Position numbers and translations under genes: made by a program
Source: Escherichia coli
GTDB taxonomy: Bacteria; Pseudomonadota; Gammaproteobacteria; Enterobacterales; Enterobacteriaceae
DNA length: 64,000 bases
NCBI RefSeq assembly: GCF_001677475.2
Contig: NZ_CP015229.1
Direction: 5' to 3' (one strand)
Notes under the pieces: generated by a model
What the model was told of the DNA's origin: nothing
Database searches by the model: none
Seen by the model: only the letters and a program-made list of their open reading frames with translations
In this document: one piece after another, positions 26,476 through 51,045 of the stretch
How the letters are laid out: each line of letters starts with the position of its first letter
Position numbering within the stretch: the first letter of the stretch is position 1

Positions 26476-26817
26476 TCAGGCGACTTTCTGTTTACCGGCA
26501 ATCACCCCAATAAATTCCTGCACCTGCTTTTGTTTACGTGCCGACAGCTTGCACACCTGGCGCAGTGACTGCATCAGTTCGCTCTCTTCGGGGGCGGGTG
26601 GTTGGGTGGTGAGGATAATACAGCCTTCCATCACTTTGACATCTACCGCCGTGCCAGTGGCAAAACCGGCGGCTTCCAGCCACTGACCTTTCAGGGTGAT
26701 GGCGGGAATGCGGCTGTAATCCGGGTAGCGACTCGCATAACTCACGGTTAATTGACGGTTATTTGCTGGGGAGACTTCTGCTTCGAACGGTTGTGCAATA
26801 GAATGCGTGTCAGTCAT
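26476..26817 (-). CDS. symE: SOS-induced toxin-like protein SymE
   Basis: Translation from ATG 26817, [34 protein letters not shown]... (113 aa), recognised as SymE; the track ORF extends upstream to 26874. Confidence 0.85.
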
Positions 26818-26885
26818 GATTACTATTCCTTTGAAATAGGGATTGTGATTAGCGGTGCGGGTGTGTTGGCGCACATCCGCACCGC
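26800..26885 (+). ncRNA. symR: Probable SymR antisense sRNA (approximate placement)
   Basis: Placed by homology logic only: SymR is described as antisense to the symE 5' end. A 9-bp perfect hairpin (gcggtgcgg/ccgcaccgc, about 26852-26884) lies at the expected 3' end. Ends not determined. Confidence 0.3.
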
Positions 26886-26894
26886 GCTAAATAC

Positions 26895-45743: not shown

Positions 45744-47210
45744 TCAGACTCCCCATTTCGGAATTGGATGGTCGCCCATGGAAATGCAGACGTTCTTCAT
45801 TTCCGCGAACACTTCGAAGCTGTACTCACCGCCTTCACGCCCGGTGCCGGAGGCTTTTACGCCGCCAAACGGCTGGCGCAGGTCGCGCACGTTCTGGGTG
45901 TTGACGAACACCATGCCTGCTTCAATGCCACGCGCCAGGCGTAACACTTTGCTGACATCCTGTGTCCAGATGTACGACGCGAGGCCGTACTCCACGTCGT
46001 TTGCCAGGCGCAGACCTGCGGCTTCGTCTTTAAACGGCAGCAGGCAGGCGACCGGCCCGAAAATCTCTTCCTGGGCGACGCGCATACGGTTATCAACGTC
46101 TGCCAGCACCGTTGGGCGCAGGAAGTTACCGCCTTTCAGGTGCGCAGGCAGGTCGGACGGTTTATCCGGACCGCCCGCCAGCAGGGTTGCGCCTTCTTCA
46201 ATGCCGAGACGGATATAGCCGGAGACTTTTTCCCAGTGTTGCTGGCTGATAAGCGCCCCAACCTGGGTATTCGGATCGTTCGGATCGCCCACGCGCAGAC
46301 GGTTGGCGCGTTCGGCAAAGCGTTTAACGAATTCTGGATAGATGCTCTGTTGAATAAAGATGCGCGAACCGGCGGTGCAGCGTTCGCCGTTGATTGAGAA
46401 GATGGTGAACAGGGCGGCGTCCAGCGCGCGCTCAATATCGGCATCTTCAAAAATCAGCACCGGCGATTTTCCGCCCAGTTCCATGGAGTATTTTTTCAGC
46501 CCGGCGTTTTTCATGATGTTGCGCCCGGTGGCGGTACCGCCGGTGAACGACACGGCACGCACGTCATGATGACGGACCAGCGCATCGCCTGCGGTTGCGC
46601 CGTAGCCCTGTACCACGTTCAGCACGCCCGCCGGAATACCGGCTTCCAGCGCCAGCTCACCCAGGCGGTCAGCGGTCAGCGGGGAGAGTTCTGACATTTT
46701 CAGTACCGCGGTATTGCCCAGCGCCAGACACGGCGCGACTTTCCAGGTGGCGGTCATAAACGGCACGTTCCACGGCGACACCAGTGCACAAACGCCTACC
46801 GGCTGCACCAGCGTGTAGTTGAGCATCTTGTCGTCGACCGGATAAGTCTTGCCGTTCATCTGCTGGCAGACTTCCGCGAAAAATTCAAAGTTGTGGGAAG
46901 CGCGTGGGATCAACACATTTTTGGTCTGATGGATTGGCAGGCCCGTGTCAGCGGTTTCCATCGCGGCGATCTCAGGCACGTTCTGGTCGATCAGATCGCC
47001 CAGACGGCGCATCAGGCGCGCACGCTCTTTCATCGGCAGATTGGCCCATTTCGGGAACGCCTCTTTCGCTGCCGCTACCGCCTGATTGATCTCCGCTTCA
47101 CCGCCGGAGGCCACATCCGCCAGCACCTCACCGGTTGCTGGATTGGTGGTCTGGAAATAGTCGTTACCTGCAACATTTTTGCCGTTGATCCAATGATTTA
47201 CTTTTTTCAT
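45744..47210 (-). CDS. hpaE: 5-carboxymethyl-2-hydroxymuconate semialdehyde dehydrogenase
   Basis: 488-aa aldehyde dehydrogenase; ATG overlaps the hpaG stop (ATGA). Confidence 0.9.
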   Translation of the reverse strand: MKKVNHWINGKNVAGNDYFQTTNPATGEVLADVASGGEAEINQAVAAAKEAFPKWANLPMKERARLMRRLGDLIDQNVPEIAAMETADTGLPIHQTKNVLIPRASHNFEFFAEVCQQMNGKTYPVDDKMLNYTLVQPVGVCALVSPWNVPFMTATWKVAPCLALGNTAVLKMSELSPLTADRLGELALEAGIPAGVLNVVQGYGATAGDALVRHHDVRAVSFTGGTATGRNIMKNAGLKKYSMELGGKSPVLIFEDADIERALDAALFTIFSINGERCTAGSRIFIQQSIYPEFVKRFAERANRLRVGDPNDPNTQVGALISQQHWEKVSGYIRLGIEEGATLLAGGPDKPSDLPAHLKGGNFLRPTVLADVDNRMRVAQEEIFGPVACLLPFKDEAAGLRLANDVEYGLASYIWTQDVSKVLRLARGIEAGMVFVNTQNVRDLRQPFGGVKASGTGREGGEYSFEVFAEMKNVCISMGDHPIPKWGV

Positions 47211-48496
47211 TTCGCTGTATCCTCACTCACAATTCGGTTCACCAGGTGGCCCACGCCTTCTACTTCCACCACTACTTCATCGCCAGGCACCACGTCAGAT
47301 AAGCCTTTTGGTGTGCCGGTGGCGATCATGTCGCCCGGATTCAGGGTCATAAATTCGCTTAAGTAGGCGATCAGGAAGGGCACGCTGAAGATCAGATCGG
47401 CGGTGGTGCCTTGCTGGCGTAACTCGCCGTTGACGAAGGTGCGAAGGGTCAGATTATGCGGGTCCGGGATCGCCTCTTTCGGCACGATGGTTGAAAGCAT
47501 CGGCGTCAGTCCGTCGCGGCTTTTTACCCGCAGGTTAGGGCGGTAGTAGTTTTCCAGATAGTCGCGAATGGCGTAGTCGTTACACACGGTGTAGCCCGCG
47601 ACATAATCCATGGCATCGGCTTCACTGACGTTACGCGCCTGCTTGCCAATAACTACCACCAGCTCCGCTTCGTAGTGCATGTATTCAATCTTGTTCGGGC
47701 GCACGGAGGTCTGGTTATCGCCAGTGAGGGTATTCGACGCTTTCAGGAACACCAGCGGCTCTTCCGGTGGCTTAAATTCCAGTTCGCTGGCGTGGTCGGC
47801 GTAGTTCAGGCCGAGGGCAAACAGCGTACCGTGCGGGTGTGGCAGCGTTGGGAAGCTCTTGCGCGTGGTCACTTCACGTTCGTCCACTACCGGATTTTCC
47901 AGCGGCGGGAAACCTTCTGCGAGAACACGAACGCGATCGCCTGGCTGTATTTCCACGCGCGCCTGTGGCGTGCCGAGCAGAATGGCATCGCCTGGATTCA
48001 GCGTGGCAAATTCGCTCAGGGCGCTCAGCAGCTGTGCGGCGTTACGTTGTAAATCGGCGGTGTTCCAGTGATCGGCAGGACGCCCGTTGATCTCGGTATA
48101 GATGGTCAGATTATCGACATTGCTGAGAGCCACGGTTTCGCCAATGGGGCAGAATCCATCACGACATTTTGCTTTGATTGCCGGGCGGTAAAAGCTCTCT
48201 TCCGGCAGGCTGACGTCGTTAGCCAGCGCATATCCGGCGATGTACTCTGCCGCATCTTCTTCACGTACTTTCGTCGCCGTTTTCCCCACAATCAGCGCAA
48301 CAGTCGCACCGCTCAGTACCTTTTCACCCTGTGGAAAGGGAATCGGTTCACCGCAACCAATCACCGTATTGCGCGGTTTAATAAACCAGACCGCAGTTTT
48401 AGGCGGGGCTTTGTAGGGGGATTTCTGGAACGCTTCCTGCCATGCATCAAGTTGGCTGCGATGGTTCAACGCTACGGCGAAGATAGTGCCTTTCAT
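47207..48496 (-). CDS. hpaG: Bifunctional OPET decarboxylase / HHDD isomerase
   Basis: Translation from ATG 48496 with GAGGAG SD, MKGTIFAVALNHRSQLDAWQEAFQ...; two FAH-like halves. Confidence 0.9.
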   Translation of the reverse strand: MKGTIFAVALNHRSQLDAWQEAFQKSPYKAPPKTAVWFIKPRNTVIGCGEPIPFPQGEKVLSGATVALIVGKTATKVREEDAAEYIAGYALANDVSLPEESFYRPAIKAKCRDGFCPIGETVALSNVDNLTIYTEINGRPADHWNTADLQRNAAQLLSALSEFATLNPGDAILLGTPQARVEIQPGDRVRVLAEGFPPLENPVVDEREVTTRKSFPTLPHPHGTLFALGLNYADHASELEFKPPEEPLVFLKASNTLTGDNQTSVRPNKIEYMHYEAELVVVIGKQARNVSEADAMDYVAGYTVCNDYAIRDYLENYYRPNLRVKSRDGLTPMLSTIVPKEAIPDPHNLTLRTFVNGELRQQGTTADLIFSVPFLIAYLSEFMTLNPGDMIATGTPKGLSDVVPGDEVVVEVEGVGHLVNRIVSEDTAK

Positions 48497-48767
48497 TACC
48501 ACTCCTCGGATTCGATCATCTTAATCATTAATATATTAATGATTACTTTTATTCCCGATTGCGTAGTTTGGCAAAAGTAAGTGATGTAAATGTGATCTAA
48601 TTAACAAACTATTTACATTTAAAGATAATAAAATATTAAATATCAGCAAGTTAACAAAACATGCTCAATTTTGATAAAATGAAGAATTGCAGGGGCAGCG
48701 CAGTCCCGGTAACGTGATGATTAACTGTTTCTATATTAATGATTTTGAATTTTTCAGGGGAAAGATA

Positions 48768-49214
48768 ATGCACGACTCTCTAACCATTGCGTTGCTCCAG
48801 GCGCGAGAAGCGGCGATGAGTTATTTTCGCCCAATCGTTAAACGGCATAATTTGACTGAGCAACAGTGGCGCATCGTGCGTATTCTGGCGGAAAGCCCAT
48901 CAATGGATTTTCACGATCTGGCGTATCGCGCCTGCATTTTGCGCCCAAGCCTGACCGGGATCCTCACGCGGATGGAACGCGACGGTTTAGTGTTGCGATT
49001 AAAGCCGATCAATGATCAGCGGAAGCTCTATATCTCGCTGACCAAAGAGGGGCAGGCGCTGTATAACCGCGCTCAGACACAGATTGAAGAAGCCTATCGG
49101 CAGATTGAAGCTCAGTTTACTGCTGAGAAAATGCAACAGTTAACCCATCTGTTAGAGGAATTTATTGCTCTGGGTAATTCCCGACAAGAAGACATCCCGG
49201 GCGATAATGAATAA
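48768..49214 (+). CDS. hpaR: MarR-family repressor of the hpa meta-cleavage operon
   Basis: Translation from ATG 48768, MHDSLTIALLQAREAAMSYFRPIVKRHNLTEQQWRIVRILAE...; divergent from hpaG. Confidence 0.85.
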   Translation: MHDSLTIALLQAREAAMSYFRPIVKRHNLTEQQWRIVRILAESPSMDFHDLAYRACILRPSLTGILTRMERDGLVLRLKPINDQRKLYISLTKEGQALYNRAQTQIEEAYRQIEAQFTAEKMQQLTHLLEEFIALGNSRQEDIPGDNE

Positions 49215-49332: not shown

Positions 49333-50997
49333 ATGTTAAAACGTATCAAAATTGTGACCAGCTTACTGCTGGTTTTGGCCGTTTTTGGCCTTTTACAACT
49401 GACATCAGGCGGTCTGTTCTTTAATGCCTTAAAGAATGACAAAGAAAATTTCACTGTTTTACAAACCATTCGCCAGCAGCAATCCACGCTGAATGGCAGC
49501 TGGGTCGCGTTGTTGCAGACGCGTAACACCCTCAACCGCGCGGGTATCCGCTACATGATGGATCAGAATAATATTGGTAGCGGTTCAACCGTTGCTGAGC
49601 TGATGCAGAGTGCCAGTACTTCGCTGAAACAGGCGGAAAAAAACTGGGCGGATTACGAAGCGTTGCCGCGTGACCCGCGTCAGAGCACCGCCGCAGCGGC
49701 AGAGATCAAACGTAATTACGATATTTATCACAATGCGCTGGCGGAGCTGATCCAACTATTAGGTGCAGGCAAAATCAACGAGTTCTTTGATCAGCCGACT
49801 CAGGGATATCAGGACGGTTTCGAGAAGCAGTATGTGGCTTACATGGAGCAAAACGATCGGCTCTATGATATTGCCGTCAGCGATAACAATGCCTCCTACA
49901 GCCAGGCGATGTGGATTCTGGTGGGCGTGATGGTCGTCGTACTGGCGGTCATCTTCGCCGTCTGGTTCGGTATTAAAGCCTCGTTGGTAGCGCCAATGAA
50001 TCGCCTGATTGACAGCATTCGTCATATTGCAGGCGGCGATCTGGTGAAACCGATTGAGGTGGATGGCTCTAATGAGATGGGGCAACTGGCAGAGAGTTTG
50101 CGCCATATGCAGGGAGAGCTGATGCGTACCGTCGGTGATGTGCGCAACGGGGCCAATGCCATCTATAGCGGTGCCAGCGAAATAGCTACCGGCAATAACG
50201 ATCTCTCTTCGCGCACCGAGCAACAGGCCGCTTCGCTGGAAGAGACGGCAGCCAGCATGGAGCAACTGACCGCAACGGTGAAGCAGAACGCCGAAAATGC
50301 GCGCCAGGCCAGCCACCTGGCGTTAAGTGCTTCCGAAACGGCGCAACGCGGTGGCAAAGTGGTGGATAACGTGGTGCAGACTATGCGCGATATCTCCACC
50401 AGTTCGCAGAAAATCGCCGATATTATCAGCGTAATTGACGGCATTGCCTTCCAGACCAATATTCTGGCTTTGAACGCGGCGGTTGAGGCTGCGCGTGCTG
50501 GTGAGCAAGGACGCGGTTTTGCGGTGGTCGCGGGAGAAGTGCGTAATTTAGCCCAGCGTAGCGCTCAGGCGGCTCGTGAAATTAAAAGCCTGATTGAAGA
50601 CTCGGTGGGGAAAGTAGATGTTGGCTCTACGCTGGTCGAAAGCGCTGGGGAAACAATGGCGGAGATTGTCAGCGCCGTGACCCGCGTGACGGACATTATG
50701 GGCGAAATTGCTTCTGCTTCTGATGAGCAGAGCCGTGGTATCGATCAGGTTGGCTTAGCGGTTGCTGAGATGGACCGGGTAACTCAACAGAACGCCGCGC
50801 TGGTGGAAGAATCTGCCGCCGCCGCCGCCGCGCTGGAAGAGCAGGCCAGTCGCCTGACCGAAGCAGTGGCAGTGTTCCGGATTCAGCAACAGCAGCAACA
50901 GCATCGTGAAACATCGGCTGTGGTAAAAACCGTGACGCCAGCTACGCCGCGTAAAATGGCCGTGGCAGATAGCGAGGAGAACTGGGAAACATTTTAA
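49333..50997 (+). CDS. tsr: Methyl-accepting chemotaxis protein I (serine chemoreceptor)
   Basis: 554-aa ORF recognised as Tsr; HAMP and signalling domains, C-terminal NWETF pentapeptide. Confidence 0.95.
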
Positions 50998-51010
50998 TCG
51001 TCATAAAAAT

Positions 51011-51036
51011 GCCCGATAAGCAAAATGTTATCGGGC
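51011..51036. terminator. Hairpin terminator in the convergent tsr/lgoT gap
   Basis: gcccgataa-loop-ttatcgggc; on the minus strand it is followed by ATTTTTAT. Confidence 0.65.
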
Positions 51037-51045
51037 ATAGGGAGA

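Follow-up and report, generated by a model that had tools for sequence, protein, structure and literature searches.

A 9-bp in-frame repeat at the start of the C-terminal tether of the serine chemoreceptor Tsr varies in copy number among Escherichia coli strains

The C-terminal linker of bacterial chemoreceptors is described as an unstructured segment of about 30–35 amino acids that bears a pentapeptide, the docking site of CheR and CheB (PMC7390727, PMC8609364). For Tar, disorder of the linker is attributed to the EPR study of Bartelli and Hazelbauer (2011), as that work is cited in PMC8609364. According to the Parkinson laboratory, conservation of the kinase-control domain ends with residue 517 (PMC4692393), and, counted from I517, the Tsr tether comprises 30 residues in K-12, compared with 34 in Tar (PMC10561060). 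Tether length has measurable consequences in Tar: over tethers of 22–46 residues, the peak of the tethered-CheR distribution shifts linearly by 0.128 ± 0.048 nm per residue (PMC10561060). A single Pectobacterium strain has functional linkers of 29–39 residues side by side, and some linkers reach 91 residues (bioRxiv 10.1101/2024.03.07.583918). Textbooks already cover Tsr together with its flexible tether and the NWETF docking peptide, and all of the alleles that we discuss are present in public databases. Our literature search on a Gln-repeat polymorphism in Tsr found no paper describing it.

We analyzed a 64,000-nucleotide stretch of E. coli contig NZ_CP015229.1, referred to below as the window, in which an inspection of the letters and translations without database searches (the sequence-only reading) had pointed out a glutamine run near the end of Tsr. 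The ORF that contains the run is identified by its predicted product as tsr, encoding the serine chemoreceptor, because four lines of comparison converge on this assignment. The protein matched the NCBIfam equivalog PRK15041 (Tsr) with a score of 1223.3 bits (cutoff 947), the alignment covering residues 1–554 of 554, whereas the next-best Tar model, PRK15048, reached 755.8 bits and stayed under its own cutoff of 900. The Pfam domains follow the order TarH (1–176), HAMP (217–263), and MCPsignal (327–484). The C-terminal end is NWETF, an xWxxF pentapeptide. Finally, the gene lies in the E. coli tsr-lgoT context, with lgoT downstream of and convergent with tsr, as it is in K-12; E. coli chromosomes are colinear with the 24 kb around the gene (hpa cluster, tsr, lgoT, lgoR ... 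opgB), the best identity being 98.3%, and all matching E. coli genomes have the hit annotated as tsr. The coordinates are collected in Table 1.

Table 1. Features at and around the glutamine run of Tsr, in window coordinates.
Feature	Position	Strand	Basis and remarks
FAA-hydrolase HpaG-like ORF	47207-48502	-	hpa cluster, upstream of tsr
MarR-type regulator	48687-49214	+	hpa cluster, upstream of tsr
tsr, serine chemoreceptor (methyl-accepting chemotaxis protein I)	49333..50997	+	554 aa plus stop codon; ORF list
C-terminal tether, I517-E549, 33 residues	50881..50979	+	boundaries from the literature; segment not conserved across genera
Six Gln codons, Q518-Q523	50884..50901	+	sequence, translation, alignment numbering
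9-bp tandem repeat (CAGCAACAG) x 2.2	50884..50903	+	Tandem Repeats Finder: period 9, 100% matches
CAT codon, His524	50902..50904	+	CAG (Gln) in nearly all other 7-codon alleles; Arg codon at 50905-50907
NWETF pentapeptide, residues 550-554, CheR/CheB docking site	50980..50994	+	sequence; role from PMC7390727, PMC8609364
Hairpin in the convergent tsr/lgoT gap	51009..51038	.	consensus scan: 11-bp stem then T run

Several features of the surroundings are recorded here for completeness. The hpa (4-hydroxyphenylacetate) cluster lies directly upstream of tsr in the window, where K-12 has btsT. The hairpin, with arms ATGCCCGATAA...TTATCGGGCAT, falls within the 48 nt that separate tsr from lgoT; it is terminator-like, has its T run on the minus strand, and lies outside the repeat. 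A 72-aa antisense ORF at 50696-50914 falls wholly within tsr, and we judged it to be a by-product of ORF listing. No RNA family overlapped the repeat site in an Rfam scan, which elsewhere in the window reported a match to the SymR antitoxin sRNA at 26812-26888 on the plus strand (93 bits versus a gathering score of 61) and two tRNA genes with identical scores on the minus strand, close to the right end of the window (63768-63851 and 63889-63972).

The site reads att CAG CAA CAG CAG CAA CAG CAT cgt gaa aca tcg. Both the DNA and its translation bear out a CAG/CAA-encoded glutamine run in the C-terminal tail, and the peptide quoted by the sequence-only reading is exact. The interval assigned to it, 50860-50900, covers the feature but starts 24 nt early and stops one base short of the end of the last Gln codon. 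The underlying structure is (CAGCAACAG)n followed by one CAG rather than a homopolymer of a single codon. Glutamine makes up 7.6% of the window's Tsr, runs of six or more are expected at about 1e-4, and a Q6 run was reached in only 2 of 20,000 shuffles of the protein; the run therefore exceeds chance. In a scan of the 64-kb window that took in all reading-frame stretches from stop to stop with 150 codons or more, the only homopolymeric runs of five or more amino acids were this Q6 and an A6 lying 50 nt upstream in the same gene.

The A6 run is an observation in its own right. It is encoded by a (GCC)5.7 trinucleotide run at 50815-50832 and corresponds to A495-A500, with methylation site E493 on one side and E502 on the other. 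The run is lengthened to eight alanines in P0124, an E. coli Tsr variant of 556 aa (e.g. EOY4501337.1, 5 contigs). As predicted from its sequence, this two-residue insertion within the methylation helix would put the two methylation sites into a different heptad register relative to each other, and it may matter more than the Gln repeat does.

Comparison of strains revealed a series of alleles that differ by whole repeat units. K-12 MG1655 carries one CAGCAACAG unit plus CAG, i.e. CAG CAA CAG CAG (Q4, 551 aa), which agrees with the statement in the sequence-only reading that the run is shorter in K-12. KSC1031 and USVAST219 carry two units plus CAG (Q7, 554 aa), LF82 three units plus CAG (Q10, 557 aa), and RM14723, which was examined separately from the alignment, four units plus CAG (Q13, 560 aa); the window has two units plus CAT (Q6H, 554 aa). 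In the DNA alignment of the window, K-12, KSC1031, LF82, and USVAST219, the gaps are exactly 9 or 18 nt, and the genomic run lengths are 12, 21, 30, and 39 nt, with whole-unit differences only. An alignment of Tsr C termini across E. coli strains, proposed earlier as a check, thus found K-12 and other strains to differ rather than to share one length. The accompanying suggestion that a homopolymeric codon run could vary in length holds for the variation itself (Q4, Q7, Q10, and Q13 among strains) but not for the unit, as the slipping unit is 9 bp, or three codons. Because the CAA within each unit interrupts the CAG homopolymer, changes come three glutamines at a time.

To obtain frequencies, we searched 5,426 complete E. 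coli genomes with short queries specific to each allele. The 7-codon length was found in 4,053 of them, Q4 in 1,209, Q10 in 59, and Q13 in three, and the four classes cover all but 12 of the 5,336 matching genomes. The Q4 count comes from a 71-nt K-12 query at E <= 1e-20, a threshold that lets through nothing but single pieces of full length; the default E-value was unsuitable for this query, as overlapping pieces were joined on Q7 genomes and 4,532 records seemingly covered the query. A synthetic Q1 allele used as a query found no Q1 among the 5,426 complete genomes, and no allele of Q16 or longer was found there with a Q13 query at E <= 1e-30, under which longer alleles would give 78-nt partial matches. 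Among the matches listed in metagenomes, 120 contigs had runs of 12, 21, or 30 nt in 25, 92, and 3 cases, respectively, and no others. The proportions in these 120 listed contigs agree with the complete-genome counts, and the Q4 share is 21–23% in both samples. Judged from these counts, the seven-codon class to which the window belongs is the species majority, and the window is unusual only in its last codon, CAT.

The position of the repeat relative to the receptor's conserved parts is well defined. The conserved part of the window's Tsr ends at F515-R516-I517, and the run starts at residue 518, directly after the last conserved position; among 120 homologues the sequence is conserved before FRI and diverges freely after it. 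Since the run begins at residue 518 and the tether is counted from I517, the natural tethers are 30, 33, 36, or 39 residues long. Extrapolating the Tar slope to Tsr, one unit would correspond to about 0.38 nm and three units to about 1.15 nm, approximately the spacing of one methylation site. We expect the E. coli length alleles to be functionally near-equivalent, given that functional linkers of 29–39 residues coexist in one strain and that some linkers are as long as 91 residues. The case for strict neutrality is weakened by the measurable effect of tether length in Tar (PMC10561060).

Sequence comparison on either side of the run bears on how the classes arose. Both Q4 and Q7 occur on at least five flank haplotypes, defined as combinations of the upstream SNP and the downstream tail sequence. 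The Tsr proteins of LF82 (Q10) and RM14723 (Q13) are identical outside the run, another Tsr protein with Q4 (P0127) differs from these two by one residue, and K-12 (Q4) and KSC1031 (Q7) differ by two residues. Because the same flank haplotypes carry different lengths, these data point to recurrent replication slippage, a mechanism that we infer from the alleles. The six full tsr alleles compared are 13–34 nt apart pairwise, with no within-clone length change among them. With no more than one to four copies of the 9-bp unit, slippage would be expected to be rare, and part of the incongruence between haplotype and length could stem from very local recombination.

Relatives of E. coli indicate which length came first. 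A 95%-identical Escherichia lineage has CAG CAA GAG CAG CAA CGC CAG (QQEQQRQ) at the same seven positions, a more distant, 87%-identical relative also has QQEQQRQ, Salmonella has QQEQQRA, and Enterobacter-like sequences have QQEQMKA. The cross-genus protein search, for which the last 100 residues were used, returned short partial proteins clustered at 90% identity, which give no within-species frequencies. Since QQEQQRQ or QQEQQRA fills these seven positions in relatives, the seven-codon length is ancestral on this comparison, and the Q4 of K-12 is a derived one-unit deletion. Among the sequences sampled, none outside E. coli proper had a perfect poly-Gln repeat. In a contig (SRR12298922) of a relative 87% identical to the window, tsr at 298-1956 is called as two genes of 330 and 151 aa, as if a frameshift or a stop codon interrupted the gene in this assembly.

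The sequence-only interpretation is thus supported by the alleles with two refinements, namely that the unit is 9 bp and that the K-12 form is a derived minority.

The last codon of the run sets the window apart. Q7-class alleles in the DNA alignment have CAG where the window has CAT, and the exact 80-mer of the window was absent from the 5,426 complete genomes, the best match being 79/80. The exact 554-aa protein is catalogued as an E. coli protein (e.g. ANO92284.1; 36 contigs), and the window shows 100% identity across 4,665 nt with GCA_031341795.3, an E. coli draft assembly. Since the 80-mer is missing from all 5,426 complete genomes, the terminal His is best read as a rare lineage marker, putatively a lineage-specific CAG-to-CAT point substitution. 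The rest of the neighborhood is also distinctive: for positions 40000-64000 no complete RefSeq E. coli genome is nearer than 98.3% across 24 kb, and the window's tsr is the most divergent of the six full alleles, at 27–34 nt from each of the other five. The lineage of the window is apparently missing or excluded from the complete-genome set, and drafts match it at 100% across 4.7 kb. The window's Tsr also has T96, Y178, and V201, compared with I96, H178, and I201 in the cluster members P0123 and P0124; I96 and I201 are at least 90% conserved in an 11-sequence Tsr alignment, and these three substitutions belong to the stretch 49333-49950, encoding the Tsr periplasmic domain and TM2.

Another His-bearing allele, independent of the first and fairly common, invites comparison with that of the window. 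QQQQQHQ (e.g. APEC O2-211) is likewise a 7-codon run broken by a CAG-to-CAT His, but the His occupies the sixth codon rather than the seventh, and the flank haplotype differs, with GCT for the Ala511 codon versus GCA in the window. It is present in at least 247 of the 5,426 complete genomes (e.g. NZ_CP006834.2), compared with none for the allele of the window; by flank, the GCA query found one genome and the GCT query, whose flank was taken from metagenome contigs, found 246. QQQQQHQ was also seen in 10 of the 120 metagenome contigs among the matches listed, and the His-bearing unit CAGCAACAT occurs in 4-, 7-, and 10-codon runs in metagenome contigs among those matches.

Together, these data suggest a simple course of events. 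Slipped-strand mispairing between the 9-bp units would add or drop whole units, by which E. coli lineages would come to carry 4, 7, 10, or 13 glutamines, and the length of the NWETF tether would follow as 30, 33, 36, or 39 residues. The alleles would then persist as an essentially neutral or very weakly selected polymorphism, because the changes are in frame and the tether is length-tolerant and unconstrained in sequence. We consider it probable that this joint explanation is correct, that is, that an in-frame repeat at the start of the tether is varied by slippage in a near-neutral manner and that the window represents the ancestral-length class with a private Gln-to-His change.

Selection might instead maintain the length classes, with the reach of CheR and CheB along the methylation helices tuned so that the kinetics or precision of serine adaptation suit each niche. 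The effect of tether length on the CheR distribution in Tar (0.128 ± 0.048 nm per residue; PMC10561060), the steadiness of Q4 in two independent samples, and the occurrence of Q10 and Q13 on B2-type tsr backgrounds with a TRAP transporter downstream are all in agreement with such tuning. However, different lengths on the same flank haplotypes are what mutation pressure predicts and not what niche sorting predicts, hosts and sources (human, dog, chicken, mouse, soil, and water) are mixed within each length class, and linkers of 29–39 aa all work in other receptors (bioRxiv 10.1101/2024.03.07.583918). On balance, we regard maintenance of the classes by selection as unlikely.

The structural data bear on a different possibility, in which the Gln run extends the C-terminal methylation helix (MH2), and length steps alter packing near E502 and hence signaling bias rather than the reach of the enzymes. 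The chain sequence of the 1QU7 crystal structure spans residues 294–520 and takes in the first three glutamines, and in our judgement the outgroup sequence QQEQQRQRE appears compatible with a helix. In an AlphaFold2 monomer model, for which the input alignment had 11 sequences at 98% identity, the helix continues through residue 526, but the model is too poor to serve as evidence, with a mean pLDDT of 43.7 and values <50 for residues 518–554. Against an extended helix, the chain in the 8C5V array model ends at 516, and the conserved structured domain is placed up to 516/517 with the rest unstructured (PMC4692393, PMC10561060, PMC8609364). Steps of three residues would furthermore break the heptad register, and still every class is common among wild isolates. 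A helical role for the run is very unlikely in our estimation, and the run is better regarded as a presumably disordered part of the tether.

Some assemblies can miscall short repeats, but the view that low complexity of the stretch led to errors of sequencing or assembly, and that these account for the length differences, has next to no chance of being right and is effectively refuted by four discrete in-frame classes across thousands of finished genomes, by the agreement between separate assemblies of the same strain (two for LF82, three for strain 8178), by the reproduction of the class frequencies in metagenome contigs, and by PDB entries, of which the construct 3ZX6 carries Q7 and the K-12-derived entries carry Q4. 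A phase-variable contingency locus was considered and rejected: all alleles are in frame and full length, repeat assemblies agree, and there are only one to four copies.

The preferred reading, a slippage-varied and near-neutral repeat, describes an ordinary allelic variation that is visible in any alignment and is of low interest, carrying little weight for biology at large. Its use is practical. Those who model or engineer chemotaxis should know that the 30-residue Tsr tether of K-12 is a minority form, as most strains, the NCBIfam model, and 3ZX6 have 33 residues; the published rationale for a Tsr tether shorter than that of Tar rests on the K-12 allele, whereas most E. coli have 33 residues versus 34. 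The K-12 tether is a derived minority (about 22%), and 33 residues, near the 34 of Tar, is the species-typical and ancestral length. A bolder reading, which we hold to be unlikely, builds on this: if tether length tunes the reach of CheR and CheB in Tsr as it does in Tar, natural lineages would differ measurably in the kinetics of serine adaptation. If this were true, the argument that the shorter linker of Tsr suits its closer methylation sites (PMC10561060) would fit the K-12 allele only. The 9-bp repeat could also be used as a minor typing marker.

Like the in-frame coding VNTRs of bacteria, the locus is a head-to-tail repeat in which strains differ by whole units, and its unit length, a multiple of three, preserves the reading frame; it differs from them in its very low copy number (1–4) and in showing no sign of rapid on/off switching. 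The Tsr of K-12 (b4355, NP_418775.1) has the same gene and locus, domain order, methylation-helix sequence, FRI517 boundary, and NWETF end, and the DNA of tsr and lgoT is 97.9% identical to the window, but K-12 has one 9-bp unit, Q4, 551 aa, and a 30-residue tether, compared with two units, seven codons, 554 aa, a 33-residue tether, and a His in the last codon in the window. The common 554-aa allele (WP_000919567.1 of KSC1031, the Tsr part of 3ZX6, and the length of PRK15041) agrees with the window in copy number and protein length and differs in the last codon of the run, CAG (Gln) rather than CAT (His). The engineered Tar tethers of 22, 29, 34, and 46 residues (PMC10561060) resemble the Tsr alleles in that they alter how many residues separate NWETF from the helical body, and they offer a quantitative model of a change in tether length. 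They are laboratory constructs with larger changes, whereas the Tsr alleles are natural and 3–9 residues apart. Their series of 30, 33, 36, and 39 residues provides a ready-made allelic ladder for the tethered-particle model of CheR and CheB in Tsr.
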